Below are positions 1,232 through 36,443 of a stretch of DNA of 45,206 nt, in pieces. A program made the translations under genes and the position numbers. Origin of the DNA: Escherichia phage Envy; the sequence record NC_031081.1; one strand, 5' to 3'. The stretch's first letter is position 1, and each line of letters begins with the position of its first letter. Below the pieces are notes generated by a model, which had not been told where the DNA came from, ran no database searches, and was given only the letters and a program-made list of their open reading frames with translations.

Positions 1232-3519
1232 AAGACTTCGAACGCCTGTTTCTCGATACCGAGACATTTAGCGGGGTGGACCTGAAGAAAGTAGGTGCGT
1301 ACGCCTACGCGGAGCACCCAACCACCGAGATTATGATCTGCACCTACGCCATAGACGAGGGCCGCGTGCAGACATGGGATTGCACCGAGTCCCCTAAAAT
1401 GCCGCGTGAACTTCGCAAGGCGCTCCGCCGGGTATCCCGCAAGAAAGCAAAAATCGTCATGGCTAACGGCCTCCTGTTTGACCGCCTGGTTATCCGTGAG
1501 AAGTGGGGTATTGACCTACCAGTTAGCCAGATCGAAGACACCATGATTATGGCCTTCCGTCACGCATTACCCGGCAGCCTTGATATGCAATGCCAGGTAC
1601 TGGGCGTAGATGCTGAACATGCGAAGGATAAAGCAGGCAAGGCGCTGATTAAGCGATTCTGTAAGCCAACGCCGAAGACTTACAAGGTCCGCCGCTATAC
1701 CCGCGAGACTCACCCGGAAGAGTGGGCCAAATTCCTCAAGTATGCGAAATACGACATCATCGCAATGCGTGAAGTGTACTGGCGTATCCCGGATTGGGGT
1801 AATACTCCGAAGGAAGACCAGATACTGGCAATTGACCAGTTGATCAATGACCGCGGATTCTACGTGGATACCAAACTGGCCTACGCCGCTATTAAAGCCG
1901 TGGAAGCGCACAAAGAAGAACTGAAAGAAGAGGCTATGGAGAAGTTTGGCGGTAAGCTAACCGGCAACGACTTCCTGCCATTGCTGCGCGATATTGCTCC
2001 GGCTTTCACTATCCATAATGCGCAGAAATCCACGCTGCACGACCTTCTTGCGGATCCTGACTTCCCGGATGAGGGCAAAGTGCTGATTGAAATGCGCCTC
2101 GGTGCGTCATCAACGGCATCGACCAAATACAATCCGCTCGTTAATGGCCTATCCGCCGATGGTCGCCGCCGTGGGTGTCTTCAGTATGGTGGTGCAAAGC
2201 GCACGCTGCGCTGGGCAGGTAAAGGTTTCCAACCTCAAAACCTGGCACGCGGAGAGTATAGCGACGATCACGAAGGGAAGATTAAGCGCCGCGAAGGTGA
2301 GAGCGACGTCGCTTTTTGGGTCCGGTCGCACATGCTCACCAACGGCATCAACTCCCTGTTACGCGGTACCGCGCACTGGGCGTATGACATATCTAAGCTG
2401 ACCGCCTCGACCGTCCGCGGGTGCATCATTCCGGCGAAGGGCAAGAAGTTTGTCGTCGCGGACTACTCCAACGTTGAAGGGCGTGGCCTTGCCTGGATCG
2501 CTGGCGAGAAAACCGCGCTAATGGTGTTTAAGGCCGGACGCGATATCTATTGCGAGACTGCCGGTAAGATGTTCGGCCTTGACCCGGATTACATCAAAGC
2601 CAACCGCAAAGACTTGCGCCAGATCGGAAAGGCGTGTGAATTGGGACTGGGCTATGGTGGCGGCGTTGCGGCGTTCTTGCAGTTCGCTAAAAACCTGGGC
2701 CTCGACCTTTACACTATGGCGGACGTGATGAAAGGCACGTTCCCGGATCACATTTGGGCGGCGGCGAAACGCGGCTATGAGTACGCCCGCATTAACGAAG
2801 CGAAGCGCCCGCCGAAGCCTGGTAAGAAAGACGAGCGCCCAACTTACATACTGCCGAAAAACGTATGGCTGACGTGCGACGCGATCAAACGTATGTGGCG
2901 TGAGGCTCACCCGAAGACGGTAGCCTTTTGGGCCGAGCTTGAGGACGCGGTGTTGTGTGCAATCCGCAATCCGGGCAAAGCATACTGGGCTGGCGCGAAC
3001 GTTCGCCCGGACGGAAGGAAAGCGCTCAAGATTGTGCGCACGAAGGCGAAGCACGACCCAACCTTCGACGAGGAGCGCGACGACCCGGACGCCGCGGGGT
3101 GGTGGTTGAAAATTGAGTTGCCGTCGGGGCGCATCATGAGCTACCCGGGCATCGCGCTGTCTGTCACGACCGAGATCGACGAAGATACTGGCAAGAAACG
3201 CACCAGCACCCGCATTAAATACCAGGGCGAGAACCAGACGACGCGCCAGTGGGGATTCCAGTACACCTACGGCGGCAAACTGACGGAGAACATCGTACAG
3301 GCGTTGTGCCGCGATATTCTCGCATGGTCCATGCCTGGCGTTGAAGCTGCGGGCTATGAAATCGTCCTGTCAGTACACGACGAATTGATCACCGAAGTGC
3401 CAGACACTGACGACTACACGACCGAGGAGCTTTGCGCGCTGATGTGCGACCTGCCAATTTGGGCGAAAGGCTTCCCACTTGCCGCAGAGGGCGATTGCAT
3501 GTATCGCTACCGCAAGTAG
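1228..3519 (+). CDS. family A DNA polymerase with N-terminal DnaQ-like 3'-5' exonuclease
   Basis: 763 aa; FLDTETFSG exo motif; RQIGKACELGLGYGGG (motif B-like) and LSVHDELITEV (motif C-like). Confidence 0.9.
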   Translation: MKDFERLFLDTETFSGVDLKKVGAYAYAEHPTTEIMICTYAIDEGRVQTWDCTESPKMPRELRKALRRVSRKKAKIVMANGLLFDRLVIREKWGIDLPVSQIEDTMIMAFRHALPGSLDMQCQVLGVDAEHAKDKAGKALIKRFCKPTPKTYKVRRYTRETHPEEWAKFLKYAKYDIIAMREVYWRIPDWGNTPKEDQILAIDQLINDRGFYVDTKLAYAAIKAVEAHKEELKEEAMEKFGGKLTGNDFLPLLRDIAPAFTIHNAQKSTLHDLLADPDFPDEGKVLIEMRLGASSTASTKYNPLVNGLSADGRRRGCLQYGGAKRTLRWAGKGFQPQNLARGEYSDDHEGKIKRREGESDVAFWVRSHMLTNGINSLLRGTAHWAYDISKLTASTVRGCIIPAKGKKFVVADYSNVEGRGLAWIAGEKTALMVFKAGRDIYCETAGKMFGLDPDYIKANRKDLRQIGKACELGLGYGGGVAAFLQFAKNLGLDLYTMADVMKGTFPDHIWAAAKRGYEYARINEAKRPPKPGKKDERPTYILPKNVWLTCDAIKRMWREAHPKTVAFWAELEDAVLCAIRNPGKAYWAGANVRPDGRKALKIVRTKAKHDPTFDEERDDPDAAGWWLKIELPSGRIMSYPGIALSVTTEIDEDTGKKRTSTRIKYQGENQTTRQWGFQYTYGGKLTENIVQALCRDILAWSMPGVEAAGYEIVLSVHDELITEVPDTDDYTTEELCALMCDLPIWAKGFPLAAEGDCMYRYRK

Positions 3520-3585
3520 CGGAAATGTTGCTTTTAGCGGAAACGTTGGGCATTATTGTCTGGCGTTTTCTTTTTCGAGGTGTAT

Positions 3586-4188
3586 ATGAAACATTGTGGG
3601 CGTTGTAATACGGGTAAAGATGAGTCCGCTTTCAACAAGGGCCAGTCGTGGTGCGCCAAATGCATGGCGGCATATAAGAAAGAGAGACGGGATAAGGAAA
3701 GAGGCGCGCCGCCGAGAGAAGTATGGCGAGAGTACACCGGGGAGATCGTAACATGTCGTACGTGCGGTGAGCGCAAGCCGCTCACGCCGGAAAACTTCCG
3801 GCCCGGAAGCCAAGCAAACGGGTCACATATTCGTAAAGAATGCCGATCGTGCGCTAATAAGTCACGCCGTGAGTACAACCACCGGACACCAGAGATCCGC
3901 GCTTACTATAAACTCTTTCAGTACCGTAAGGCAGACGAAAGGAAGGGGCTAAACACCGACCTTACTACAGAGGACGTGCTGCGCCTTACTTCTCAGCCGT
4001 GCGCATACTGCGGATTCACCGGCGACAATGGCGCGGACCGACTCGACAACGCAGTAGGCCATACGAAAGATAACTGCGTGCCGTGCTGCGTAGAGTGCAA
4101 CATAGCCCGCGGGGATCGGTTTACCCCGGACGAAATGAAGAAGTTTATCGGACCTGCCATCGCTGCCGTAAGGAAAAGCCGACAATGA
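3586..4188 (+). CDS. HNH endonuclease with two N-terminal zinc-ribbon-like modules
   Basis: CAYCGF...DNAVGHTKDNCVPCCVECNIARGD HNH-like region; two CxxC...CxxC modules; GAGG RBS before ATG 3586. Confidence 0.7.
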   Translation: MKHCGRCNTGKDESAFNKGQSWCAKCMAAYKKERRDKERGAPPREVWREYTGEIVTCRTCGERKPLTPENFRPGSQANGSHIRKECRSCANKSRREYNHRTPEIRAYYKLFQYRKADERKGLNTDLTTEDVLRLTSQPCAYCGFTGDNGADRLDNAVGHTKDNCVPCCVECNIARGDRFTPDEMKKFIGPAIAAVRKSRQ

Positions 4189-4463
4189 CACCAGAAGGCA
4201 AGGTGCAGCGTCACCTTATGAAACGGGTTAAAGAGGTTGGCGGATTCTGCCGAAAACTGGCATGGGAGGGGCGCGCAGGTGCGCCCGACCTGATTATTAT
4301 CATCAACGGCATAATAGTGTTCGTCGAAGTGAAGCGCCCAGGCGGAAAACCGAAGCCGCACCAGGTACGTGAACATGAGCGAATGGCCCGCCGCGGTGCT
4401 GACGTTCGCGTTATCGACAACATATCCGACTGCGATTTATTGGTTGCTGAATTGGTCGCATAG
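4185..4463 (+). CDS. VRR-NUC domain nuclease
   Basis: GAPDLIIIINGIIVFVEVKRPGGKPKPHQ matches VRR-NUC pattern; ATGA overlap with HNH stop. Confidence 0.7.
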   Translation: MTPEGKVQRHLMKRVKEVGGFCRKLAWEGRAGAPDLIIIINGIIVFVEVKRPGGKPKPHQVREHERMARRGADVRVIDNISDCDLLVAELVA

Positions 4464-4503
4464 CGGTATAGTGTGCCGGTTAGCCATATCGAGGATTTTA
4501 GAG

Positions 4504-4677
4504 ATGATTGAAGAAAAACGTTGTAGTAATTGCGGCTGTGTAAAGCCGCTATCCCAGTTCCACAAATACACCGGTAAGACTGCGCGCAGTCCAGACGGGT
4601 ATCGGGCAGAGTGCAAATCGTGCCGCAATAAGAAAGAGCGCGAACGGCAGCGCCGCTACCGTGCAGAACAAAAATAA
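4504..4677 (+). CDS. small zinc-ribbon protein (57 aa), paralog of the HNH N-terminal modules
   Basis: CSNCGCV...FHKYTGK...CKSCRNKKERERQRRY; internal ATG of track ORF 4369..4677 with upstream AGGA. Confidence 0.45.
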   Translation: MIEEKRCSNCGCVKPLSQFHKYTGKTARSPDGYRAECKSCRNKKERERQRRYRAEQK

Positions 4678-4684
4678 TTAATAC

Positions 4685-4707
4685 GGCGGGCTTGTCCCGC
4701 CATTTTT
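4685..4707 (+). terminator. rho-independent terminator
   Basis: GGCGGG-cttgt-CCCGCC hairpin then ATTTTTGG. Confidence 0.6.
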
Positions 4708-4720
4708 GGGAGACATGACG

Positions 4721-4939
4721 ATGAAAGAACATTACCGGCTCACCAAGCTGGGCGAATGTAAACCGGGCGATCGCGTATGGTTTATCGCAGGCATGAATGA
4801 TCCGCTGCCGTTGACGGTGTGCTGGCAAAAATTTAAGAGCTTCCGGGCTACCGGTGTGCACATCGGACACGCCACCAACTACGACGCCACAAAAAGGAAC
4901 TGGAACAGTGAAACAGAAGTCTGGAAAAAGGCGGAATAA
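4721..4939 (+). CDS. hypothetical protein (about 72 aa)
   Basis: GGGAGA RBS upstream; ATG at 4715 or 4721. Confidence 0.45.
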   Translation: MKEHYRLTKLGECKPGDRVWFIAGMNDPLPLTVCWQKFKSFRATGVHIGHATNYDATKRNWNSETEVWKKAE

Positions 4940-4943
4940 AGAT

Positions 4944-6368
4944 ATGGCACGTTTCCGACGTCGCGAATATCAGAAGTTGATAACCGCGTTCATCCTCAAG
5001 CATAAGCGCTGCAATATTTGGGCGACAATGGGGTCGGGTAAAACCGGCGCGACCATGTGGGCGCTGAATAAAATGTTCCAGACTGGCGTCCTGTCCCATC
5101 ATGAGGACCGCGTACTGGTGCTGGCCCCGCTGCGTGTTGCGTCGGGTACATGGCCACCGGAACAGGAGAAATGGCGATTCTCATCCCTGCTGGTCGTAGA
5201 CGGCACCGGGCCGGAGAAGGACCGTATTGCGGCGCTTGAGAGCGACGCTAACGTGGTTTGTGTTAACTACGATGTGGTTGAGTGGCTGGTCGACTATTAC
5301 GGCGATGCGTGGCCCTTTACGGTCGTTGTTGCCGATGAATCGACTAAGCTGAAAGGCTATCGTAGCAAGCAGGGGAGCAAGCGCGCCCGCGCACTGGCAG
5401 CGATTGCACATAAACACGTCAAGCGCTGGATTAACCTTACCGGCACACCAGCGCCAAACGGGCTAAAAGACTTATGGGGTCAGACGTGGTTTGTCGACGG
5501 TGGCGAACGCCTCGGCAGTAGCTATAAGGCATTTACCGACCGCTGGTTCATTAGCAAGCCTGTTAAGCCTGGCAGCTTCACTATGCAGCACGCTCCGCTA
5601 AAGAACTCCGAGAAAGAGATACAACAACGTCTGTCAGATGTATCCCTCACCGTTGACGCGGCTGAATACTTCGGGTGCGACAAGCCAATCTATACGCCGG
5701 TTGTTGTGGACCTGCCGAAGAAAGCGCGCAAGATTTATGACCAGTTTGAAAGCGAGCTATTTGCAGAACTGGAAAGCGGAACAGTGGAAGCGGCGAACGC
5801 GGCGTCGAAGACAATTAAGTGCCTTCAGCTTGCATCCGGCGCTGTGTATAAGGTGGACGAAGACGGCGAACGGACCGACGAGTGGGTGAAGATTCACGAC
5901 GCGAAGCTGGACGCGCTGGAAAGTATTGTGGAGGAGTTGAACGGAGCGCCGTTGCTCGTTGCGTATCAGTATAAGCATGACCTGGCACGTCTTAAGAAGA
6001 AATTTCCGCACGGCGTTGCGTTGGGTAAAGGTAAGCAGGGCAATAAGGATATGGAAGCATGGAACAGGGGCGAGATCCCCATCATGTTTGCACACCCGGC
6101 ATCGGCGGGCCACGGCCTTAACTTGCAGGACGGCGGTCATCACCTGGCAATCTTCTCCGATACCTGGAACTTTGAGCACTTTTCGCAGATCGTTGAGCGT
6201 ATCGGGCCGGTTCGCCAGATGCAGGCCGGGCACCCTCGACCGGTATTCGTCTACATTATCCAGGCGCGCGGGACACTGGACGAACTGGTCGCGGAGCGTC
6301 GCGACAGTAAGCGAGACATTCAGGACGATTTAATGGAATACATGAAAGCTAAAAAGGCGCGCAAATGA
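4944..6368 (+). CDS. SNF2/DEAD-like superfamily 2 helicase
   Basis: Walker A MGSGKTG, DExx-like VVADES, NLTGTP; internal ATG at 4944 with RBS. Confidence 0.8.
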   Translation: MARFRRREYQKLITAFILKHKRCNIWATMGSGKTGATMWALNKMFQTGVLSHHEDRVLVLAPLRVASGTWPPEQEKWRFSSLLVVDGTGPEKDRIAALESDANVVCVNYDVVEWLVDYYGDAWPFTVVVADESTKLKGYRSKQGSKRARALAAIAHKHVKRWINLTGTPAPNGLKDLWGQTWFVDGGERLGSSYKAFTDRWFISKPVKPGSFTMQHAPLKNSEKEIQQRLSDVSLTVDAAEYFGCDKPIYTPVVVDLPKKARKIYDQFESELFAELESGTVEAANAASKTIKCLQLASGAVYKVDEDGERTDEWVKIHDAKLDALESIVEELNGAPLLVAYQYKHDLARLKKKFPHGVALGKGKQGNKDMEAWNRGEIPIMFAHPASAGHGLNLQDGGHHLAIFSDTWNFEHFSQIVERIGPVRQMQAGHPRPVFVYIIQARGTLDELVAERRDSKRDIQDDLMEYMKAKKARK

Positions 6369-7460: not shown

Positions 7461-7703
7461 ATGAAACGAGTATTTTTTGATTACGACGGTGATTTACGGT
7501 TATGGGTGTGCATTGTGCTGTTCTTATTCTTTTGCCTCCTGCTGCCGATTTCCTGCACGTATAACCTCGATAAATATGAATGCCGTATTGTCTACGCAGA
7601 ACTAACAGGTCGTAACACCCAGTGGCGCTATGGCACTTGCTGGGTTGAAATGGACGGCAAATTTATACCACGCAAAGAAATTCGCATGACGGATATTAAA
7701 TAA
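7461..7703 (+). CDS. small membrane protein (about 80 aa)
   Basis: GAGGA RBS 7 nt before ATG; hydrophobic stretch LWVCIVLFLFFCLLLPI. Confidence 0.5.
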   Translation: MKRVFFDYDGDLRLWVCIVLFLFFCLLLPISCTYNLDKYECRIVYAELTGRNTQWRYGTCWVEMDGKFIPRKEIRMTDIK

Positions 7704-8161
7704 TGAAAATTTTACAAGAAGAGAAAGCGTATTGGGTAGCACAGTGTCTTGAAGCCCGCGAGAAAGCGGAAGGAGCTACCGCGCTGGCGGACACCTACCT
7801 GGCGAGCTATGAAGGCGAGGAGAAGGTCCGAAAGGAATTAGAGGAACGCTTCGAACTGCTGGGCGAACTGATCACCATTATGCAGCGCACCGGGTACACA
7901 ACATCCGTATCGCTCACCCGGCTAACCGCCGATGCCCTGCGCGAGCATTACAAACTGGCCGAGGAGTACGTCCGTCCGAAGGGCAGCCAGTCTTCGATCC
8001 CGCGGAAAGGACTGGTGCATATAGCGTGGCGTGCAAACGGCAGCTACTATTCCGATAGCCGACCGCTCAGTAAGGAGGAGATGTCCAGAGTCCAACGCGT
8101 GCTATCCAGCGGAAAGAAAACCGCCCTGTATGCGATAGATCCAGACTATGCAGAAGAGTGA
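7703..8161 (+). CDS. hypothetical protein (152 aa)
   Basis: ORF coupled to neighbours (TAAATAATG). Confidence 0.55.
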   Translation: MKILQEEKAYWVAQCLEAREKAEGATALADTYLASYEGEEKVRKELEERFELLGELITIMQRTGYTTSVSLTRLTADALREHYKLAEEYVRPKGSQSSIPRKGLVHIAWRANGSYYSDSRPLSKEEMSRVQRVLSSGKKTALYAIDPDYAEE

Positions 8162-8633: not shown

Positions 8634-8838
8634 CCGCAGTATGCGCGTCGTGGACGAAATTGTTAAACGCTACCAAATTAACCCGAGGGAGAACAAAGTT
8701 CGGCGGGTAAGTCGCCCGGAGCAATTGCTCGGCCTGGACCTTACCGGCTGGCTTGTAATGACTGCTAGCAGCCATCTTGTGTGTGGCACGTTTTCCGCCC
8801 GTATTGTTCGTGAAAATTTGATCAAGGAGTTGAAATGA
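8614..8838 (+). CDS. hypothetical protein (about 74 aa)
   Basis: internal ATG of track ORF; overlaps Dam 3' end by about 20 nt in another frame. Confidence 0.35.
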   Translation: MNILVVDRSMRVVDEIVKRYQINPRENKVRRVSRPEQLLGLDLTGWLVMTASSHLVCGTFSARIVRENLIKELK

Positions 8839-9350
8839 AATTACTGATTTGCGATTTGGATGGCGTTATTAACGGTTCAAGCGATGCGCGTGCCGACCTG
8901 GTTCCGGGCATAAAAACAAAATCCACCTTTTGGGCGAAGTGGCACAAAGCGCATATACGCGAAGATCTGAACATGGATATGCTGCCGCTGCTGACCATGT
9001 ACAAAGAGCAAGGCTTCGAGATCGCGTATCTGACCAACCGGCAGCGAGAATGCTGGGAGACTACCGTCGAGCAATTGGAAGTATTCCCCGTAGGCCGGTT
9101 GTTTATGCGCCACATGCTGGACGATACCCCGCCGCCAGAGTTTAAAGCGTGCGCCGTGTTCAAAATGGTCTGCTATGCGGACGTATCGGAACTGGTCATC
9201 ATTGAAGACTGCCCGAAGAACATCGCGGCCATTCGACGGGCGTGCAGCGATCTGGTCTCGAAAATTTATGCGATAAACGTTGCAAAATTTACTTGCAACC
9301 AACCTATTGGTTGCACTATAGTTAACTCGTCGGGGCGATATGGCCCCTAA
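8835..9350 (+). CDS. HAD-superfamily hydrolase-like protein
   Basis: N-terminal LICDLDGVI (HAD motif I DxDG); 3' end overlaps the next promoter. Confidence 0.55.
   Translation: MKLLICDLDGVINGSSDARADLVPGIKTKSTFWAKWHKAHIREDLNMDMLPLLTMYKEQGFEIAYLTNRQRECWETTVEQLEVFPVGRLFMRHMLDDTPPPEFKACAVFKMVCYADVSELVIIEDCPKNIAAIRRACSDLVSKIYAINVAKFTCNQPIGCTIVNSSGRYGP
9293..9322 (+). promoter_or_regulatory. sigma70-like promoter (TTGCAA-18-TATAGT) overlapping inverted repeat TGCAACCAA-ccta-TTGGTTGCA
   Basis: hexamers plus perfect 9-bp inverted repeat. Confidence 0.45.
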
Positions 9351-9363
9351 AAAGGACCACATA

Positions 9364-9918
9364 ATGAAAGCATACGAATACTGCAAAAACGCCGCCACCA
9401 CTATGGAACAGCGCGGAAAAGAAAACGGCTATGACAACGCGAAAGAAGAGCGTAGCGCTAAACAGATCGCTGACGTGTTTAACGCGCTTACCGGTCGCGA
9501 CCTGACCGAGCAAGAAGCCTGGACCTTCTTGATCTGCCTGAAGCTGGTACGCCAGCACCGTAAGCACCAGGACGATAACATCGTTGACCTGGTAGCATAT
9601 GCCGCACTGCTGGGCGAGTCGTACATGACCGTGCATGACGAGATCCAGATCGACACAACGGCAGCACAATTCGACAGCCTCAAAGACCTGTCCGTACGAC
9701 TAGATGGCGAGATTAATGCGTATAACAGTGCGATGCGCGTTGCCGAAGGTGTGGTGGCCTCGTTCGGGAAGACTGTCAAAGCCGCCAATTTCGGCGTAGC
9801 GGCCCAGGACGTCCAGCCTATGGTCGTGCTCACTGGAGAGGATGGGTCCAAAATCCTCATGACGCCGGAAGACTTCCGCAACATGGAAAAAACACTGGTA
9901 CGTAGCGCACTGAAATAA
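9364..9918 (+). CDS. hypothetical protein (184 aa)
   Basis: AAGGA RBS 8 nt before ATG 9364; WTFLICLKLVR...DNIVDLVAYAALLGE motif recalled from small phage helical domains, unverified. Confidence 0.55.
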   Translation: MKAYEYCKNAATTMEQRGKENGYDNAKEERSAKQIADVFNALTGRDLTEQEAWTFLICLKLVRQHRKHQDDNIVDLVAYAALLGESYMTVHDEIQIDTTAAQFDSLKDLSVRLDGEINAYNSAMRVAEGVVASFGKTVKAANFGVAAQDVQPMVVLTGEDGSKILMTPEDFRNMEKTLVRSALK

Positions 9919-20503: not shown

Positions 20504-23142
20504 CGTTTGTAAAGTACACCACCCGGTTTCGTCGCCTTCACGATCTCGGCCTTGACCGACTCGGTGATTTGCTTTCCGAACGCCTGCGCGGTGCGCGGGT
20601 CTGGACCGCTAACACTGGTATCCGTCTTACCGGTCCCCATGTTAACGTTGGTCGTTACAATCATTCCCCCGACACCGCCTGCCGCGGCAACGCCAAGTTT
20701 ACCGTCTGGCCCGCGCTTAAGCGGCATGATGGCCTCGGGGCCAGCCTCCCCCATCAATCCTGCGCCCTTAGCGAACGCCTGGACGCCATAACTGAAAAAG
20801 GTGGGCTGGCTTACCACTTGCCCCGAATAGGCCGCGAGGTTGCCCCCTGCGTACGCTCCGCCGTCCGCATTCTTAGTGAGGCCGGAGAAAATAGCGCCGA
20901 ACAATCCGTTTTTGCCGCCGTCACCGCCGAAAGCGCTAACGATGGACTTGAACGCCTGCGAGGTAGCCAGCTTTATTAATTCGCTCAGAATGGACTTAAC
21001 CATATCTTTTGCGTTCAGCTTGCCAGTCTCGAAAAACTCGTTCATCGTGTCCTGCATAGCGCCGAACGTGAATTTTGTGAGTGACGTCATCTGCGTATAG
21101 CCGTTACCCATTTCATCAACACTATCCTTAAGCCCGCGGCTGAAGCCATCCCATAGCGAGGCGTTAGCACCGGTCTGTGCTTCCTGCACTTCGCGCAGCT
21201 TAGACACCGCCAGATCAATATCGGTATCGTTAGCGCCCACCCGCTTCAGGCGATCAATTAGCTGCAATTCTTCGCGCAGGTTAGCCGCTTCGCGAGTGGA
21301 AAGCGCATATCCCGCCGCGGTGGCTTTTAGCTCGGCGTTCTGGTTCTTGATGAATGCATCGACCTGGGCGTGTGCTTTGATCTGCTTCTCTTTCGCGTCC
21401 AGCAATTTGGCTTCTTCGACGATCTGCTCGCGTACCGATTTAACCGCCTCGAACGCCGCCGTTTGCTGCTTTTCTGCTGCCGTGAGTGCGCGCTCCTTGC
21501 TCGCGGTGATTAACTGCTCATTATCGGCAATCAGCTTGTTCAGGGACGCTTGCGCGCGTTGCGTGCGGGTCTGCGTCGATGCGTTGGCTTCGATCTGCTT
21601 TCCAGACTCACGAAGCTGGGCTAATTCGCTTCGCGCGACTTCCAGCATTTTCAGCCCGGCATCGACTCGAACTGCCGCCGCTTTCTTCGGCGCGGGGTCT
21701 TTGTAACGCTCGTTGACCTGCTTCACCGCCTCGGCTAGTTCTTTCTCGTTAATAACACCGCGCATATTCAGCAAATTTAGGCGGGCGATCTCGTCGGCTC
21801 GCCGCTTCGCGTTGGTTGCGTACTCCTTCTCAAACGCGGCGCGGTCGCGGGCGGCGCGGTTTGCCTCCTCGTTCGCCTTTGCTGCTTCATCCGCGGCGCT
21901 GGCGCTGTCTCGCTCGGCACGGTTGCGAAGGGTGAGCGACGCTACTACCTTTTCCTGGGCGACCAGTTCGCTGTAAAGCATGTTAATACGCGCTTTCTGC
22001 GCTTCGGTCATCACCCCACCGGCAGCGTTTACCGCCCTCATCTCGGCATAGTACGCCGTGGTCATGCGCTGCAAGGACTCACGCGCTTTCATCTCGGACT
22101 CATTCGAGGACTGCGCGCGGCCCACATCCAGGATGGCATCCCACATAGATTTAGCTGCCGATGTAACTACGTTCATCGACCGCTCAAGCGTACCCATGTT
22201 GGACTTTACCTCATCGGTCATGCTGGAGAACGACGCAGCGGCTGTTTTGTTAGCCAGAGCAACCGCGTCCGTTTCACGACCCATATCTACAAGCGATTGC
22301 ACCTGCTGGATCTGCGCCTCGGTAACGACATGATACTTATCCGCCAGCGCACGCAGTCCGCCCACTGGGTCGTTCGACAATTTTGAGATGGATTCAACCA
22401 CGTCAGAGATCGGCTGATTAGACGCCTTCGCAAAGTCATTCACCACTTTCGCCAGCGTTCCGAAGTCTGCACCTGCTTTCACCCCCGCCGCCGCCAGCGC
22501 CTGGATTGTGTCACGCGTCTTGCGGAACGACCCGCCCATGCGCTCGGCGTTCTCGGATAGCACCAGGATCTGGTTTGCCGTTAGGCCGGAAATGTTACCT
22601 GACAGCGCCAGCGTCTTGTTAAGCGCTGAGACCTGGTTCTCTGCGCGGGACGTAATTGCCACCCCTACGCCTAAAGTTGCCGTTAGTGCTGCAATGCCGA
22701 TCCCTACCGGACCGAGGACGCCCGCGACATAACGCAGCGTGTTACCAAATCCCCCGAACGCCCCAGTAAGCTGTGGTAACTGCTGAAGCATAACGCGGTG
22801 CACCGGCATACCCATCTCAAGCGTTACCGCAATATCCTGTAACTGGAATGCGGCGTTGCGTGAGGCAAAGCCCAGGTTTTTGGTCGACATGCCTAACCTG
22901 TTGGCAAGCCGCTCCTGTTTCGTCATACCGTCGGCGGCGCGCTGCGATTCGTTCGCCAGCTTTTCCATTCCGCCCGCGGCGTCACTCGTCACCTTTTTGG
23001 ATTTGCCGAGGGTGTCGTTTAATTTCTTAACCTTGTTTTCTGTGTTCTCGGATTTCTGTGCGAACGAGTCCAGCACAGTATTTGCCGTTCTGATTTGTGC
23101 AACATCCGCCTTTAGCGTGATGCCTGCTGCCTGATCTGCCAT
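20500..23142 (-). CDS. tail tape measure protein
   Basis: 880 aa, coiled-coil rich with Gly-rich C-terminus; after chaperone G/G-T and before M-like gene. Confidence 0.85.
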   Translation of the reverse strand: MADQAAGITLKADVAQIRTANTVLDSFAQKSENTENKVKKLNDTLGKSKKVTSDAAGGMEKLANESQRAADGMTKQERLANRLGMSTKNLGFASRNAAFQLQDIAVTLEMGMPVHRVMLQQLPQLTGAFGGFGNTLRYVAGVLGPVGIGIAALTATLGVGVAITSRAENQVSALNKTLALSGNISGLTANQILVLSENAERMGGSFRKTRDTIQALAAAGVKAGADFGTLAKVVNDFAKASNQPISDVVESISKLSNDPVGGLRALADKYHVVTEAQIQQVQSLVDMGRETDAVALANKTAAASFSSMTDEVKSNMGTLERSMNVVTSAAKSMWDAILDVGRAQSSNESEMKARESLQRMTTAYYAEMRAVNAAGGVMTEAQKARINMLYSELVAQEKVVASLTLRNRAERDSASAADEAAKANEEANRAARDRAAFEKEYATNAKRRADEIARLNLLNMRGVINEKELAEAVKQVNERYKDPAPKKAAAVRVDAGLKMLEVARSELAQLRESGKQIEANASTQTRTQRAQASLNKLIADNEQLITASKERALTAAEKQQTAAFEAVKSVREQIVEEAKLLDAKEKQIKAHAQVDAFIKNQNAELKATAAGYALSTREAANLREELQLIDRLKRVGANDTDIDLAVSKLREVQEAQTGANASLWDGFSRGLKDSVDEMGNGYTQMTSLTKFTFGAMQDTMNEFFETGKLNAKDMVKSILSELIKLATSQAFKSIVSAFGGDGGKNGLFGAIFSGLTKNADGGAYAGGNLAAYSGQVVSQPTFFSYGVQAFAKGAGLMGEAGPEAIMPLKRGPDGKLGVAAAGGVGGMIVTTNVNMGTGKTDTSVSGPDPRTAQAFGKQITESVKAEIVKATKPGGVLYKR

Positions 23143-30396: not shown

Positions 30397-31462
30397 TAGT
30401 CATTAGTTCGCCCGTATCGGTGAACATCTTCGGCACTTTCACGCCTCGCATAATCTGGTCGGCGCGTTGCACCCCGTATAATTCTTCCAGGATATGGCGC
30501 GGCTGGCGCTGCACCCAGGAGAAGAAATCAGTCTGCGCGTCGACCTGCTCACTCAGCAATCGGCCCGCGTCAGCCTTCAGTGCCGGACGCTTACCACTGG
30601 GCCAATCTTCCATGCCCTTAACTTTCCACGTCTCCGTCGAACGGCAGCAATAATGCAGCTTGCCCGGTCCAGCGCCATATTGTGATCCCGCCACCACTTT
30701 CCCGCCGCGTTTTCCTTTGGTGTCGGGAGTGACGTCAACAGGATAAAACAGGCGATCGCGTAGCTGGCACATAGGGGAAGTATGAGTGTCCAATGTGGAC
30801 AACCATTGGCGACCTTCGAGAATATCGTCATTAGCTTTCACCATTAATTCGCGGGCGGTCGCCGCATAGTGGTTGACTGCGGACTTAACAACGCTTGAGA
30901 TTGCTTGCGCACTACGACCGCCGAGCGCGCGCCTCACGTCCGCGATAATTTCCATAGTCGGCTTGCCCTGGATGAATCCGGCGCGCACCTGATTGCCGAT
31001 CTGCGTCCTTGTCCACTCTGAAAGTGAATCCGGCCATTGCATCATGGTGTTACCCTGGAACGGGTTTTTCATCGCAGTCGCTGCGATCTGCGCGCCTGTT
31101 ACTACACCCACCACCTCGACCGCAGGTACGGCGACCACCGGCTGGATCGCTGCCGTTAATGTGTCGGCGAGATAATCGGCCTCGGTGTCGGCAAACTCCT
31201 GAAGGCTTTCAGCCAGCGCCTTAAACTCGGTGCGCAGTTCTGTTTTAACGGTCTTGTCGAGTTGCGTTAACAGAGTGGTAAGTGCCTTGTTGTTCATGGA
31301 CTTTTCGCCATCAAGTAACTCGGTCAGCTTACCCAGTAACGTGGGCCGGAACTTCGCCCACATAGCCAGCACCCGCCGCGCCTGGTCATTGCTCAGGCGC
31401 TGGGTGAAGATGTGACGACGGATCATGCGATCCGCCATATGTTGATTAATCGTTCTCGCCAT
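30359..31462 (-). CDS. head morphogenesis protein (Mu F / SPP1 gp7-like)
   Basis: QWLSTLDTHTSPMCQLRDRLFYP matches Mu-F signature; directly after portal gene. Confidence 0.7.
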   Translation of the reverse strand: MARTINQHMADRMIRRHIFTQRLSNDQARRVLAMWAKFRPTLLGKLTELLDGEKSMNNKALTTLLTQLDKTVKTELRTEFKALAESLQEFADTEADYLADTLTAAIQPVVAVPAVEVVGVVTGAQIAATAMKNPFQGNTMMQWPDSLSEWTRTQIGNQVRAGFIQGKPTMEIIADVRRALGGRSAQAISSVVKSAVNHYAATARELMVKANDDILEGRQWLSTLDTHTSPMCQLRDRLFYPVDVTPDTKGKRGGKVVAGSQYGAGPGKLHYCCRSTETWKVKGMEDWPSGKRPALKADAGRLLSEQVDAQTDFFSWVQRQPRHILEELYGVQRADQIMRGVKVPKMFTDTGELMTIAQLKNRGLWRD

Positions 31463-32966
31463 TGTCCGCTACCTTGTCCGGGTCTTCTTCGGTAGATTCT
31501 ACCGCATCAGGGGACATTTGAGGCAATGGATTCTGATTTCGCAATTCGTCTTCCACCTGCTCGACGGTTTGCGAGTCGTCAATGACGCCCTGCGCCATCA
31601 TCCACTTGATGAAGTCAGCAAGTCGGACCGTACCAGTCTGCACACCTGCCATCATCGCGGTCATAAGCTGCGCATCAACCGCGATTTCGGTGTAGAACTT
31701 GTTCAGCGTTACGCGCTGGTCAGCGGTGTCACCCGTGAATAACTGGACGATTTGCAGCGCACGGTTGAAAGCCTTCTCAACGTTACCGGCAATCAGTGAC
31801 AGGATACTGTTATCAGTCTGCGCATCATAGGCCGCCTCGGTTGCCGTCTTAGGTGCGGTCCCCTTCTCGACCAGGGCCGCGCCCAGTTTAGCCATTTGCA
31901 ATTCGCGACGCTCACACAGTGCTACCGACAAGTTTCGCTCCTCCGCCTGGATCAGTTTAGCGTCCATGTTCTGACCAAGAATAACGCCCTTAGTCGCACC
32001 GAGGGCAATGCCTCCCTTCAGGTTCTTGTCAGCCCATGATTGAGTCAAGCCCGTCGCAACCAGGGTAGGCTGGCCCACAATGTGCGCAATCTCGGCGACG
32101 TCTGCTTCGGCGTTGTAGTGCTTAATGTTGATGGATGCGATATCCGCCAGCGGAGCGGCGTCAGGCGTTGCGTTGTTGTCCACAGCACCACACCAGCAAA
32201 ATGGCAGTTGAGTAAGCGCATTACCGTCGGCATCCACCAGCGGCACAAGGTCGGTGCGGGTGAAGCCGCGCGGCAAGTCCATTTGCACTTCTGACGTGTC
32301 TGCGTTGTAAAACCAGCGGCGGGCGTGTGCCGCACCGTTAATCATGCGAAGCTCAGTCCAGATCGTTACTTCGTGGTTTGCGAAATCGTCCGGGTCTTCG
32401 GTGCTGATTTCGTCCGTTTCCTTCAGCACAATTAGCGTATCGACGCCGTGGGTCTGCCGCCAGTTAATGATCTGCTCAGCAGTATACAGGCGGATAAGCG
32501 GGCGATGTGTCGCCATTTCAGCGGCTGTCTGCGGCACTACGTTACCCAGTTCATCAAAGTTAGCCTGGCGGTCGTAGTCCACCATAAAGCCAGCGCGGCC
32601 CGATTGCAGCACTTCAGACATAGCACCGCGCAGGAGTTGTGGCAGTGGCATCCCGCTGCCGTCTACGTCGTCAATCAGGTCAGCCATTGCCCCGGAAAGG
32701 TCCAGACTTACCGGTTTAGCAAAGGCAACGCCTAACAGCGCGTTAAGTGTGCGGGCGGTGGCGTTCAGGAATACAGCGCGTTGCTTGTACGCCTTATACC
32801 GCGCCCGTGCTTTCGGGTCAGTATTGTCGCCACTGGCGGGATGAGGCAGGTACAAGGGGCCGCACGCCTTCACGGCGCGCTCCCCTGCTACACAGTCACG
32901 AATCATTTTCCACTCTGGCGCGATGCGCGCATAGAGAGGGTGCTGGTTGTCAACGTTAACGGTCAT
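31446..32966 (-). CDS. portal protein
   Basis: 506 aa; immediately after TerL; acidic C-terminus. Confidence 0.75.
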   Translation of the reverse strand: MTVNVDNQHPLYARIAPEWKMIRDCVAGERAVKACGPLYLPHPASGDNTDPKARARYKAYKQRAVFLNATARTLNALLGVAFAKPVSLDLSGAMADLIDDVDGSGMPLPQLLRGAMSEVLQSGRAGFMVDYDRQANFDELGNVVPQTAAEMATHRPLIRLYTAEQIINWRQTHGVDTLIVLKETDEISTEDPDDFANHEVTIWTELRMINGAAHARRWFYNADTSEVQMDLPRGFTRTDLVPLVDADGNALTQLPFCWCGAVDNNATPDAAPLADIASINIKHYNAEADVAEIAHIVGQPTLVATGLTQSWADKNLKGGIALGATKGVILGQNMDAKLIQAEERNLSVALCERRELQMAKLGAALVEKGTAPKTATEAAYDAQTDNSILSLIAGNVEKAFNRALQIVQLFTGDTADQRVTLNKFYTEIAVDAQLMTAMMAGVQTGTVRLADFIKWMMAQGVIDDSQTVEQVEDELRNQNPLPQMSPDAVESTEEDPDKVADNGEND

Positions 32967-32976
32967 GGTCGTTTCC

Positions 32977-34362
32977 TTAGTAGAAGTCTACAGTTGGAAC
33001 AACGGCGATCGGACGAATCACTGGGAACAGGTGCGCAATTGGATAGCCCGCGGCATCGTTCATGTGGTCCACACCGGCGGTTTTATCCGGCTCGCCTTTC
33101 TTCAGGTCGTAGACCTGCTGTTCCAGACATTTCGCTAGTGTAGGGCATTTATCCAGGTTGACAAAATACTGGCGCACGCCCTTCGAGTTGCACATCATCG
33201 TATTCATCGCGATCAATCGGTCTTTCACGGGAGGGTTAACGCTGTCATACTCCACCTCGAAGCCCGCGTCTTCCAGTTGCGCGATATCGGACGACGATGC
33301 GTTGACAGTCTTGCGAGACTTGCCGCTGCTATCCGGGTAAACAACAACACGACCGGCAGCACAATGATCGGGGTATCGCTCCTCGATCGCCTCAATCATA
33401 GCCGGGGTATCAAACAGGTCCACAAATTCATCCACTGCGTGAATCTCGTCGCGGAACTCCTTGTTTTCGGTGATGCGCTGCCGTCTGACGTACACGACCG
33501 CCGCCATTTTCGTGACGTTAAAGTCCATACCGATAATCAGCGTGTCGTCCGGCTGCACTTCTTCGGTGCTGGCGTTCTCCTCGCGGTTGAACATCTTGTA
33601 CACCGCGCCCGACGTAAGGTTAACAAACAGGCCGTTCAGGTACGCATCAATCAGGTTAGCCGGGTACTGACTGCGCAGCGTGTCGATAAAGTCTGCCGGT
33701 AGATGGTGGTTGTCGGTGGTCTTCGCCCGGATCAGGCGCTTTTGGCTATCCTTCTCCACCTCGAAGATTTGATACATCGCCCGGTAGCCTTCAGGCGTTG
33801 ACACGATGACGAACTGGCGGACGAAGCCCGCACGCAGACGACCGAGCAATTTGTGATACGCCGCCAGCGCGACGTCTTGCTTAGTAGTGTCGAATTCATC
33901 GGCGACAATCCATGCGGCGTTGACCCCGATCAGGCGGGTATAGTTCTCCATTGATTCACAGATAACGCGGGTCCATTTCCCTTTCACCAGCACGCTATAA
34001 ATCTTGTCCTGCTTATTGAACTTCCACCGGAATCCAGCCTCGTCGAATGCCTTCTCCAGTTCCGGATACATGATTTTAACCAGGAGCGGAATAGTCGGTT
34101 CTGTAACGATGCCGTCATGCCCTGGGTTCAGGGTTAAAAGCTGGATGACCTTACGCGCAGCGACCCACGACTTTCCACCGCCGAAGCCGGAACACAGGCC
34201 GAGGATTTTAGTCTTCGTGTCCCGCAGTAGTTCGACCTGGTGCGGCAGGCAATCAGGCTGGTAAAGACGCACCGCCTGCGCAACGCGTGTCGGGCGCGGT
34301 GGTCGGTTGCGCTTTGCAATCGCGCGCTCAAGTGCGCGGTGTTCTGCCGCATAGTTACGCAT
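32977..34362 (-). CDS. terminase large subunit
   Basis: 461 aa; Walker A-like GFGGGKS; C-terminal nuclease-like region; TAATG coupling with TerS. Confidence 0.9.
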   Translation of the reverse strand: MRNYAAEHRALERAIAKRNRPPRPTRVAQAVRLYQPDCLPHQVELLRDTKTKILGLCSGFGGGKSWVAARKVIQLLTLNPGHDGIVTEPTIPLLVKIMYPELEKAFDEAGFRWKFNKQDKIYSVLVKGKWTRVICESMENYTRLIGVNAAWIVADEFDTTKQDVALAAYHKLLGRLRAGFVRQFVIVSTPEGYRAMYQIFEVEKDSQKRLIRAKTTDNHHLPADFIDTLRSQYPANLIDAYLNGLFVNLTSGAVYKMFNREENASTEEVQPDDTLIIGMDFNVTKMAAVVYVRRQRITENKEFRDEIHAVDEFVDLFDTPAMIEAIEERYPDHCAAGRVVVYPDSSGKSRKTVNASSSDIAQLEDAGFEVEYDSVNPPVKDRLIAMNTMMCNSKGVRQYFVNLDKCPTLAKCLEQQVYDLKKGEPDKTAGVDHMNDAAGYPIAHLFPVIRPIAVVPTVDFY

Positions 34363-34913
34363 TATTCACCCTGGCCTTTACCGGTAGGTTCGACAACGAC
34401 GTCGCCGTTATCATCTTCGTCGTCATCCAGCGGTACATCGTCGCGGACGCCGTGGTTTGCTTTAAGCAGGAACGTAGCGAAGCCCGCCGCGATGGTTACG
34501 CCGCCAGCTTCCATCAGGAAAGTTTTCTGCAACTCCATTGCGTCCGCCATCGCCTCGGCAAACTCCTCATGCGCACGCGCCCAGCGATACAAGCAAGCTA
34601 CGCCCACGCCGATTTCAGCGGCAAATCGGCCGAAGGTTGGCATTTTGTTCCGGGGGATTACTTGCGCAGCGCCTTTATCGGAGTAGTTGACCTGCCATGC
34701 GTCGGCGTCGGCAAAATAGCGGCGAAGCTGGTCGCAGTAAACGGATCGGTAGTCAGTAGGGCGTCCACATTTGCCGCCTTTACGGCGCTTTCCGTACTCG
34801 ATTTCAGGTCCGAGATTGGTGTGCTCGGTTTGCTCGCCTGGTTTACGGCGAGGGGTTACTGCTACTCGTCCGTCCAGTTTGGCGCGTCGGCCCTTAACTT
34901 TAATTTCTGCCAT
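34362..34913 (-). CDS. terminase small subunit
   Basis: about 183 aa from internal ATG (MAEIKV...); KMPTFGRFAAEIGVGVACLYRWARAH helix-turn-helix typical of TerS; acidic tail. Confidence 0.6.
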   Translation of the reverse strand: MAEIKVKGRRAKLDGRVAVTPRRKPGEQTEHTNLGPEIEYGKRRKGGKCGRPTDYRSVYCDQLRRYFADADAWQVNYSDKGAAQVIPRNKMPTFGRFAAEIGVGVACLYRWARAHEEFAEAMADAMELQKTFLMEAGGVTIAAGFATFLLKANHGVRDDVPLDDDEDDNGDVVVEPTGKGQGE

Positions 34914-35043
34914 GATATAAGCCCTTTTGTTCATATGCGCCGACCATCGGCAACATAGGAGACGGCCCTGCCATCTAAGGGGGATTATAACAGGCACAAA
35001 AAAGCCCACCAAATCGGCAGGCTGGGAGGCTTATGGGTTGCCG

Positions 35044-36186
35044 TTACTTCAACATTTCCGGGCTAATGGTTAAGCGCGCTACTTCGCCGTAGTTGGCGCT
35101 ATAGGTGATGACGTTTGCGCTGCGACCGCTCATCCAACCGCCACGACTGGCGTAGGCGTCTTTCGCTGCGAGCGTCCGGTGCTGTTCAACAATCATGTTG
35201 CGGGATTCTACAATCTTCTGGTGGTGCAAGTGGCCTACGTGCGCGTAGCTGTACTCACTGGCCCCGAAAGCCTGTCTGAATTTAGAAATCATGACGGTTT
35301 CGATAGCGTCAAAGCGCGCTTTATGCCCGTGGTGGAAAAATAGCGTGGTCTTGCCGTGCTGCACCATTTTGTAGACGTCCGGGGACGTATCCACATCGAC
35401 GCGCGGCTCGTTCTCGTACAGCGTGTTGAACATCTCAGCCAGCCAAATCATACCCGACTCGTCATGATTTCCCTGGACGATTAGCAGTTTGACTTTGTGG
35501 TGTTTTTGCAGCGCCAGTTCGACTACGTTGCGCACCATGCGAATCATGTAGCGGACCAACTTCTGGTATCTGGTGTCTGCGTCCAGGATGTGACCACTGG
35601 CTGGGGTGACGGCATCGAGGCTATCAAAATGCGCCATATCACCGAGGATATTGATTACGGCAGTTCCTGCGTCTGGTGCGCGGGCGAAGGCTTCGACAAA
35701 CCAGCGGTAAAACAGGTCTTCAGCGATTGCCATATCCCAGTCCTCGCCAGTCTCCTCACCCCATGCCAACATGCCCAGGTGGAAGTCGGACACGGTGTAC
35801 AGGTTGAGTAGGTCAAGTGCCTGGATCGGGACAGGCGGGGCGTTTACTGGCGCTGCCGGTGTGATTTCGCTGTTCATACCCTCGACAACAGCGCGCATAG
35901 CTTCTAGTTGGCGCTCCTTGTCCTGCTCAGTGATAACCCACGACATGACCTCTTCGCCATTGCCGCGTACCAGGGCCGATACGCGCTTAACTCCGAAGCC
36001 ATCAGCAACGCGCTTGCGGATTACAGCGTCATTGCCGTGTCCAATGCCTTTTTTCGACAGGCGGGCTTTCCGCATATAAACATTGCGTAGGGCAATCCCG
36101 TATTTCTTCGCAATATCTTTAACCGTAGTCCCTGCCTGAATTTCTGCGATCAATTGCTCATCGGTAATTTTAGTTTGCGGGTGCAT
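35044..36186 (-). CDS. HTH domain fused to calcineurin-like metallophosphoesterase
   Basis: N-terminal TTVKDIAKKYGIALRNVY HTH; phosphoesterase motifs ILGDMAHFD, LIVQGNHDE, FFHHGH, HVGHLHH. Confidence 0.7.
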   Translation of the reverse strand: MHPQTKITDEQLIAEIQAGTTVKDIAKKYGIALRNVYMRKARLSKKGIGHGNDAVIRKRVADGFGVKRVSALVRGNGEEVMSWVITEQDKERQLEAMRAVVEGMNSEITPAAPVNAPPVPIQALDLLNLYTVSDFHLGMLAWGEETGEDWDMAIAEDLFYRWFVEAFARAPDAGTAVINILGDMAHFDSLDAVTPASGHILDADTRYQKLVRYMIRMVRNVVELALQKHHKVKLLIVQGNHDESGMIWLAEMFNTLYENEPRVDVDTSPDVYKMVQHGKTTLFFHHGHKARFDAIETVMISKFRQAFGASEYSYAHVGHLHHQKIVESRNMIVEQHRTLAAKDAYASRGGWMSGRSANVITYSANYGEVARLTISPEMLK

Positions 36187-36248
36187 ATTTAATTAATTCC
36201 TGATTATGGGGCCAGGGACAATATATCACGGGACTTATCGAGGCGGGC

Positions 36249-36277
36249 AATAAAAAGCCCGGAATTAACCGGGCTTG
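36249..36277 (-). terminator. rho-independent terminator
   Basis: AAGCCCGG-ttaatt-CCGGGCTT then TTTTAT on minus strand. Confidence 0.55.
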
Positions 36278-36281
36278 TGGT

Positions 36282-36443
36282 TTACTCTTCTGGATCTGCG
36301 GGCGGTGGCGGACTCGGCAGCTTCGCGTCAAATACGCCAGCATGACTGATAGTGTCCGCGATAATGGCGCGAGCGCCTGGGTCTTCGGTTTTAGCCAGCG
36401 CGGCGAGCGCGTCCGCATTATGATCAAGAATACTTTTTAACAT
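36282..36443 (-). CDS. small hypothetical protein (about 53 aa), not in ORF track
   Basis: GAGGTGA RBS, ATG just after endolysin stop, ends just before terminator. Confidence 0.35.
   Translation of the reverse strand: MLKSILDHNADALAALAKTEDPGARAIIADTISHAGVFDAKLPSPPPPADPEE

Follow-up and report, generated by a model that had tools for sequence, protein, structure and literature searches.

What does a protein that joins a helix-turn-helix (HTH) to a metallophosphoesterase (MPE) do, and why is it encoded immediately before the packaging genes of a phage? The question is raised by a locus in the 45,206-nucleotide stretch of DNA analyzed here (the window), which is 100% identical to the record of Escherichia phage Sloth (KX534339.1) across the 3.2 kb tested, equals that record in length, and is a rotation of it; Sloth is a Dhillonvirus from the human bladder microbiota. 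A preliminary description of the locus regarded both the domain fusion and the position before the small terminase gene as unusual, and proposed that the product is either a DNA-targeted nuclease or a regulatory phosphatase tied to packaging.

The HTH-MPE gene and its neighbors

The HTH-MPE gene is complete and occupies positions 35044..36186 on the minus strand, encoding 380 amino acids from an ATG start to a stop codon at 35044-35046. A ribosome-binding site, AGGAA, lies 10 nt 5′ of the ATG (36197..36201, minus strand), and the aligned siblings have either AGGAA or a near variant such as TGGAA or TGAAG at this place. The open reading frame is a real gene, with an end-to-end match to PHROG 704. 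The product is identical to ANY29961.1 of KX534339, where it is labelled 'hypothetical protein'.

The location directly upstream of the terminase genes is also confirmed. Downstream of the HTH-MPE gene and on the same strand are first TerS (34362..34913; PHROG 3064, E = 4e-73, with weak matches to GP3_package and Sf6_terminase, and present as a CDS in the record) and then TerL (32977..34362; Terminase_6N, E = 1.1e-13, and Terminase_6C at 30.1 bits against a cut-off of 22.6), both of which we treat as neighbors outside the HTH-MPE unit. On the 5′ side are two holins, an endolysin, and a 53-aa ORF.

Domain organization and catalytic motifs

An AlphaFold2 model of the HTH-MPE protein, built on 136 divergent sequences, has a mean pLDDT of 93.2 and a pTM of 0.82, and divides the protein into four parts. 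At the N-terminus is a three-helix HTH at residues 9-45 (helices 9-17, 22-29, and 33-45; 36052..36162, minus strand), a tri-helical fold that superposes on known DNA-binding HTH domains. It is followed by a conserved beta-hairpin and long helix at residues 64-107 (35866..35997, minus strand), recognized from the models and from conservation, in which the AlphaFold2 model places the hairpin at residues 64-88 and the helix at 90-107; G77 and W83 of the hairpin are at least 90% conserved in 136 relatives, and the hairpin-helix module is retained in a Campylobacter phage version of the protein without the HTH. A structure comparison of this module with the PDB gave no match. A proline-rich linker at residues 108-120 (35827..35865, minus strand), which is variable in the alignment and modelled with lower confidence (pLDDT ~71), leads to the MPE catalytic domain at residues 121-380 (35047..35826, minus strand).

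The catalytic domain has the MPE fold, and the preliminary description of an N-terminal HTH joined to a complete MPE motif set is correct: GDMAH (182-186, the GDxxH motif), GNHDE (239-243, with GNHD at 239-242), and GHLHH (318-322, with GHxH at 318-321) are all present, as are the DxH motif at 134-136 (D134/H136) and H286. Among the 136 relatives used to score conservation, which share 32-47% identity, all five motifs (D134/H136, G182-D183-H186, N240-H241-D242, H286, and G318-H319-x-H321) show conservation of at least 90%, up to complete invariance. The invariant residues are D134, H136, G182, D183, T194, N240, H241, H286, G318, and H321, and those conserved at 90% or more include H186 (96%), D188, D202, R206, H285, H288, and H319. 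Metal ligands that are kept so strictly point to an active enzyme.

The domain search proposed in the preliminary description gave the full-length match to PHROG 704, with the Pfam models for both halves of the window protein falling below threshold. Metallophos_2 scores 22.2 bits against a threshold of 27 and Metallophos 20.0 against 21.5, although both scores are still significant (E = 1.6e-4 and 1e-3, respectively), and we note that the family is a divergent branch of the calcineurin-like metallophosphoesterase superfamily. The Pfam HTH models match at E ~0.002-0.06, with GerE for example at 18.4 bits against a gathering threshold of 23.5. The orthologue NPat matches Sigma70_r4_2 at 26.6 bits (gathering threshold 25.7), and among 120 relatives there are Pfam matches to Sigma70_r4_2 in 13 (best 1.5e-9), to HTH_1 in 26, and to GerE in seven.

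A widespread family with a standard architecture

PHROG 704, annotated as 'DNA repair exonuclease', matches the window protein with an E value of 7.9e-161, aligning residues 5-380 with profile positions 2-390 of 390; the next-best family is PHROG 284 'exonuclease' (2e-13). By tblastn, ~2,060 phage records contain a homologue, and in 1,680 of them the match spans at least 80% of the query; among the hosts of these phages are Escherichia, Klebsiella, Salmonella, Vibrio, Campylobacter, Flavobacterium, and Rhodobacter. When 1.84 billion cluster representatives (clusters at 50% identity) were searched exhaustively with HMMER, 4,641 clusters matched at E ≤ 1e-3, of which 1,129 reached E ≤ 1e-30; the best 150 of the 4,641 have a median length of 390 aa.

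The same HTH is present in 125 of 140 full-length representative clusters (~89%) and the hairpin-helix module in 130 of 140, counts that are partly circular because the HMMs, made from the N-terminal alignment, were trained on a subset of the same representatives. The HTH-MPE fusion is the standard architecture of the family, and the view that fusion to a DNA-binding domain is unusual has to be given up. The family extends to phage T1, in which ORF16 (AAP49983) is 45% identical over 377 aa, the full length including the HTH (E = 2e-109), and is annotated as 'exonuclease, HHpred 99% to E. coli SbcD', and to the Guernseyvirinae, whose homologues are 75-81% identical to the window protein. Labels in the records include 'phosphoesterase', 'DNA repair exonuclease', 'metallophosphoesterase' (in Kagunavirus), 'winged HTH domain-containing protein', 'sigma-70 region 4 domain-containing protein', and, in Jerseyvirus, 'HTH-type regulator/nuclease SbcD'. 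Because these public labels name both the HTH and the nuclease parts, the two-domain architecture has already been noticed; the gene and its family are likewise already in public annotation, PHROG 704 being a very widespread phage family. The wider structural family in BFVD is found in phages of many hosts, with labels such as 'DNA polymerase II small subunit' or 'metallophosphatase'. We found no biochemical or genetic study of the PHROG 704 family in the literature searched, and the family goes unmentioned in the phage Tn-seq and daunorubicin papers.

Comparison of Sloth with a Kagunavirus shows that HTH-MPE is the best conserved protein between the two, at 75% identity, relative to 66% for the helicase, 65% for the DNA polymerase, 41% for TerL, 29% for the portal, and 27% for the major capsid protein; it is also among the few non-tail proteins common to Sloth and T1. 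The top conservation in the first comparison and the presence in T1 argue for a strongly constrained, self-contained activity. It is a near-core gene of several large enterobacterial siphovirus groups, including T1 and members of model phage collections.

Transcription signals around the gene

The HTH-MPE gene is bracketed by features that resemble transcription signals. After the 53-aa ORF and 5′ of the gene there is a terminator-like hairpin followed by a T-run (36255..36276, minus strand), which only some of the siblings have. Closer to the gene, ~33 nt 5′ of the ATG, is CCGTGATATATTG (36219..36231, minus strand), which contains an extended -10-like TGnTATATT and is, by its conservation, a candidate promoter/operator: CCGTG(G/A)TATATTG is kept in 9/9 Dhillonvirus genomes compared, while the sequence 5′ of the element differs completely. 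The 13-mer is unique in the genome, and its 18 near-matches (18.7 are expected) are at the level of chance, such that there is no genome-wide repeat motif. On the 3′ side, ~20 nt beyond the stop codon, is a second terminator-like hairpin, with TTTTTT (35003..35023, minus strand), which is conserved in the siblings with the Sloth-type arrangement. Between this terminator and TerS is TGTTATAAT (34984..34992, minus strand), a neighbor feature that is conserved in siblings and is the only perfect match to the extended -10 consensus in the genome, where 0.68 would be expected by chance.

A sigma-70 promoter scan gave no site on the strand of the HTH-MPE gene, and TGNTATAAT is found once in the genome, which is the chance expectation; because this count and the near-matches of the 13-mer are both at chance level, the promoter assignments are made from position and conservation only. 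In some siblings a 70-aa ORF (PHROG 20931) separates the MPE gene from TerS and overlaps the stop codon of the former (ATGA), and T1 and Shelanagig have an annotated terminator behind the gene or behind the small ORF that accompanies it. We infer from these signals that the HTH-MPE gene probably forms a transcription unit by itself or closes one, with a proposed start near 36210, and that a separate unit, with a predicted start near TGTTATAAT (about 34975), would open with the packaging genes.

Gene order across lineages and the terminase question

If the position before TerS were meaningful, as the preliminary description supposed, it might point to a packaging-linked nuclease or phosphatase that aids TerS and TerL, as HNH endonucleases do for HK97-type terminases. 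We therefore compared gene orders using 80 IMG/VR loci, found in a search with a 9-sequence alignment and falling into 24 clusters at ≥80% identity, and combined seed-based mapping of the loci with an unbiased Pfam scan that covered, in representatives of 23 lineages, the next two genes downstream. In addition to the Dhillonvirus group, in which the gene directly precedes TerS, two lineages (L084 and L090) have a terminase within two genes downstream, but this adjacency amounts to only three of the 23 dereplicated lineages, and the three use unrelated TerL types (Terminase_6N, Terminase_3, and GpA). Moreover, the T1 orthologue is ~32 kb from the terminase and the Guernseyvirinae copy lies among tail genes; in the window itself the terminator-like hairpin and the promoter-like TGTTATAAT element intervene before TerS, at a place where some siblings have an extra gene inserted; and the window TerL already carries an RNaseH-like nuclease domain of its own. 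A role in packaging is in our judgment hardly credible, and the proximity to the terminase is best accounted for by gene order: in a few lineages the gene sits where the early module meets the late one.

The position of the gene differs among phages. In the Dhillonviruses it has the lysis cassette on one side and TerS on the other; in Webervirus and T1 it ends a block of helicase, resolvase or VRR-NUC, and Dam genes, with the lysis cassette next; and in the Drexlerviridae it is in the replication block, before lysis. In Jerseyvirus and Kagunavirus it belongs to a small, oppositely oriented island flanked by the tail-tube and tail-chaperone genes. A 2026 pangenome study reports the exonuclease as persistent in 508/522 Drexlerviridae, with PNK and a dNMP kinase most often directly after it (PMC13164509). 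The gene-order pattern in that study, obtained independently, is the same as the one described here.

The gene also has neighbors of another kind. An HAD_PNKP phosphatase is downstream in at least four lineages, often together with a P-loop kinase and sometimes with a ligase. An HAD PNKP-type 3′-phosphatase and a P-loop dNMP-type kinase are near the gene in Webervirus and Kagunavirus, and both are joined by a ligase in metagenomic lineages. In Erwinia phage S2, a podovirus, the gene lies between an exonuclease/endonuclease pair and a 3′-phosphatase/kinase followed by a further ORF and a ligase, and in a Campylobacter myovirus the homologue adjoins a ligase and a Holliday-junction resolvase. 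These neighbors (3′-phosphatase, dNMP-type kinase, ligase, resolvase, and exonucleases) suggest a function in DNA end processing, repair, and recombination-dependent replication, and/or in host DNA breakdown coupled to nucleotide salvage.

The recurring order of MPE, HAD_PNKP phosphatase, and P-loop kinase, with a ligase added in some lineages, also accords with a different activity, in which the MPE would be a 2′,3′-cyclic or 3′-phosphodiesterase that heals RNA or DNA ends in concert with the phosphatase, kinase, and ligase, for instance in the repair of tRNAs cut by host anticodon nucleases. Elsewhere Sloth has genes for an HAD 'polynucleotide kinase' protein and for a small protein that resembles a ligase, and there is a precedent in the MPE module of bacterial Pnkp, which performs 2′,3′-cyclic phosphate healing (PMC2190708, PMC3675462). 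We nevertheless consider end healing to be an unlikely role for the HTH-MPE protein.

The varied positions of the gene have been considered in one further light, in which it encodes a phosphodiesterase directed against host defence, breaking down an immune signalling nucleotide such as a cyclic oligonucleotide. The gene would then be an insulated, self-regulated counter-defence cassette, in which the MPE would cleave an immune nucleotide or defence-generated nucleic acid and the HTH, like an Aca protein, would repress its own promoter at the conserved CCGTGRTATATTG over the -10 region. Such a role would explain why the cassette moves among genome positions in related phages while being highly conserved. 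However, near-core persistence in the Drexlerviridae (508 of 522) and the top rank in intergenus conservation are unlike the behavior of fast-evolving accessory anti-defence genes, the gene sits in DNA-metabolism contexts, its top fold matches are nucleases, and PADLOC gives no meaningful match; we regard both the activity and the cassette arrangement as quite unlikely. A PADLOC match of DrmC to the HTH (E = 0.009) was dismissed as spurious.

Function of the HTH-MPE protein

The closest solved folds to the MPE domain are DP1, SbcD, and Mre11. Because non-nuclease MPEs also score well in the fold comparison (LpxH 14.0, MJ0936 13.5, YfcE 12.8, and Rv0805 12.2), the modelled fold favors a DNA nuclease without proving one. 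The active site points in the same direction: motif II of Mre11 is GDLFH, i.e. of the GDxxH form, and the GDMAH of the window protein, with a motif III of GNHD that includes the histidine, constitutes an Mre11-like, nuclease-type active site. Of the two options put forward in the preliminary description, the nuclease is therefore retained as the likelier, on the strength of this motif, the fold matches, and the DNA- and nucleotide-metabolism neighbors in relatives, and it is the tie to packaging that is discarded.

One form of the phosphatase option is a Ser/Thr (or Tyr) protein phosphatase that would reprogram the host in the manner of the lambda phosphatase. Lambda Ser/Thr phosphatase and the PPP phosphatases do share with HTH-MPE the superfamily, its set of metal-binding motifs, and its metal-binding scaffold. 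However, motif II of the PPP phosphatases is GDxxDRG and that of HTH-MPE is GDxxH, and there is no close similarity to the PPP fold, the lambda phosphatase being absent from the top 60 fold matches of HTH-MPE, as is Pnkp. A protein phosphatase seems very unlikely.

We judge it slightly more likely than not that HTH-MPE is a DNA nuclease that acts alone, depends on a metal, and serves phage DNA and nucleotide metabolism, with its own predicted HTH as a DNA tether. It would be a DNA phosphodiesterase, the metal probably being Mn2+, with exo- and/or endonuclease activity and belonging to the Mre11/SbcD/PolD-DP1 structural type. The N-terminal HTH and the hairpin-helix module would together hold the catalytic domain on DNA, replacing the Rad50/SbcC ATPase partner and the capping domain. 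The enzyme may act on DNA ends or breaks in the course of recombination-dependent replication and of repair, and/or it may degrade host DNA and feed nucleotide salvage, like gp46/47 of T4; these T4 homologues of Mre11 and Rad50 (gp47 and gp46, respectively) serve recombination-dependent replication and repair as well as host DNA breakdown. In the window the gene would be transcribed as its own small unit and would be functionally independent of the terminase.

Several observations weigh against this reading. The sequence link to Mre11 and SbcD is negligible, with Thermotoga maritima SbcD at E = 0.81 in the PDB profile search, and the phage MPE nucleases T5 A1 and Bxb1 gp47 are not detectably of the same family; in addition, the HTH could serve in autoregulation rather than in targeting of DNA. 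If HTH-MPE is nonetheless an Mre11-like nuclease that dispenses with Rad50 through a DNA-binding module of its own, it would be a tidy addition to the biology of phage DNA metabolism that overturns nothing, and it might account for the breakdown of host DNA, or for recombination-dependent replication, in the T1-like phages. A host-DNA-degradation function, T1 'gene 2.5', was reportedly described by Roberts and Drexler in 1981. We have not adopted the equation of gene 2.5 with ORF16, since its place in the map order does not clearly coincide with that ORF.

Comparison with known nucleases and phosphatases

Mre11, SbcD, and DP1 differ from HTH-MPE in several respects. There is no room in HTH-MPE for a capping domain C-terminal to the nuclease core, the N-terminal HTH and hairpin-helix module being found instead, and a Rad50/SbcC or polymerase partner is not encoded; no Rad50/SbcC-type ATPase gene is annotated anywhere in the sibling Dhillonvirus Zumzum, nor does one adjoin the window gene. 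The Pfam and NCBIfam models for Mre11 or SbcD do not match the window protein, and NCBIfam as a whole yields nothing significant, PdeM (a ligase-associated nuclease) being at E = 0.17. The PDB profile search gives matches to the HTH only at E ≥ 0.04 and no close solved structure, and a search with the single sequence finds only designed armadillo-repeat proteins, a spurious match to residues 67-100. The label 'proof-reading exonuclease / DNA polymerase II small subunit', which is used by some authors, was also rejected, as was any DP1-like role as a polymerase small subunit, because T1 has the gene and no DNA polymerase is annotated in its record.

Among phage proteins, A1 of T5 provides an instructive parallel. 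Predicted to be a metallophosphatase that carries a DNA-binding domain at its N-terminus, it is both essential and sufficient for host DNA degradation (bioRxiv 10.64898/2026.04.02.716235; bioRxiv 10.1101/2022.08.27.505566). It thus resembles HTH-MPE in its superfamily, in the order of a DNA-binding N-terminus and an MPE C-terminus, and in a similar context of motif III (NHDxxxSxWL), and some relatives of A1 carry Pfam HTH domains. It differs in its length of 556 aa, in its assignment to PHROG 1745, and in being a pre-early gene on the first-step-transfer DNA. Alignment of the two family profiles by hhalign covers 22 columns around motif III with a probability of 26%, and A1 is for this reason taken as an analogue and not as a relative. 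We also note that escape mutants of SECphi4-type Dhillonviruses implicate SSB and DNA polymerase, not the HTH-MPE gene (bioRxiv 10.1101/2022.08.27.505566).

A second parallel is with the MPE of Cluster A mycobacteriophages (A10ZJ24 gp48 and Bxb1 gp47), of which A10ZJ24 gp48 is reported to have phosphodiesterase activity and to disrupt the integrity of host DNA (PMC12287305). Like HTH-MPE, these are phage MPE proteins with the five motifs, but they are shorter (~255 aa), are without the HTH or hairpin module, and belong to PHROG 221; Bxb1 gp47, which is annotated as a recombination directionality factor, matches PHROG 221 and not PHROG 704. Homology to HTH-MPE through Bxb1 gp47 was rejected, the hhalign probability being 5.4% over motifs III-V only. 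Phage MPE proteins that attack DNA are nevertheless precedents for the activity predicted here, with T5 A1 and the mycobacteriophage MPE as analogues rather than relatives on the evidence of these profile comparisons, and the true counterparts of the window protein are the other members of PHROG 704, which have the same full-length arrangement of HTH, hairpin-helix, and MPE and differ from it only in genome position.

Conservation and genome position of the HTH-MPE gene

Comparison of the genome of Sloth with that of the Kagunavirus fKuEco01 (MT711525.1) shows that the most highly conserved protein is the 380-aa helix-turn-helix metallophosphoesterase (HTH-MPE, PHROG 704; 35044–36186, minus strand), at 75% identity; the DNA polymerase and helicase are 65–66% identical, TerL 41%, and the capsid and portal proteins 27–29%. 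The position and orientation of the HTH-MPE gene differ between these two phages. If tail genes and a single methylase-like ORF are set aside, it is also the sole protein that Sloth has in common with phage T1 (AY216660.1). This pattern fits either a very strong constraint on the protein or exchange of a cassette between phage lineages.

In Kagunavirus and Jerseyvirus, both Guernseyvirinae, the MPE gene lies within a small, oppositely oriented island that is inserted into the tail module, with the tail-tube gene on one side and the tail-assembly-chaperone genes on the other (3139–5661 in locus L008 and 3747–5346 in locus L002). The island contains an Imm-like superinfection immunity gene, the MPE gene, and after it either a HAD phosphatase and a dNMP-type kinase or a 76-aa ORF; the tail module is an odd placement for genes of DNA metabolism. 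Counterparts of the genes that adjoin the MPE gene in other lineages are present in Sloth on the opposite genome arm, all on the plus strand: a 'DNA ligase' that at 152 aa is very short for a ligase (7703–8161, PHROG 10530), a HAD 'polynucleotide kinase'-type phosphatase (8835–9350, PHROG 415), and a protein of 192 aa whose PHROG matches, to 'phosphofructokinase', are weak (9340–9918).

Sequences flanking the HTH-MPE gene and annotation of its neighbors

Between the endolysin and HTH-MPE genes is a 53-aa ORF (36282–36443, minus strand, PHROG 11068) that may encode a lysis accessory function, such as a spanin-like protein; a terminator-like hairpin comes after it, at 36255–36276. A 13-mer, CCGTGATATATTG (36219–36231, minus strand), occurs once in the Sloth genome and is retained in all nine Dhillonvirus genomes compared, in contrast to the sequence flanking it on the 5′ side; it may serve as an extended -10 promoter, as an operator recognized by the HTH motif of HTH-MPE itself, or as both.

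On the other side of the gene, a 70-aa ORF (PHROG 20931; 22411–22623 in locus L004, with L014–L017 as further loci compared) is present in about one-half of the sibling Dhillonviruses and shares an ATGA overlap with the stop codon of the MPE gene, an arrangement that suggests translational coupling. At the corresponding stretch, 34993–35043, Sloth lacks this ORF and instead has a terminator and TGTTATAAT. The longest TerS ORF (34362–35012, minus strand) starts at a TTG within that upstream terminator. The match to the PHROG, the CDS in GenBank, and the promoter-like element agree in favoring a true start at the ATG at 34913. The 506-aa ORF directly after TerL (31446–32966, minus strand) is a 'minor tail protein' in GenBank KX534339, which is probably a misannotation; its equivalent in the sibling genome Zumzum is annotated as a portal protein, and its position suits a portal.

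Resemblance to T5 A1

The A1 protein of phage T5 (1706–3376 in the T5 locus) and the Sloth MPE family have in common an unusual context after motif III, the GNHD motif of the MPE domain, reading ESNHDLALSRWL in A1 and EGNHDxxSSxWL in the MPE family. Comparison of A1 with the MPE family profiles gave no alignment beyond this context, and the likeness could reflect either very remote homology or convergence.
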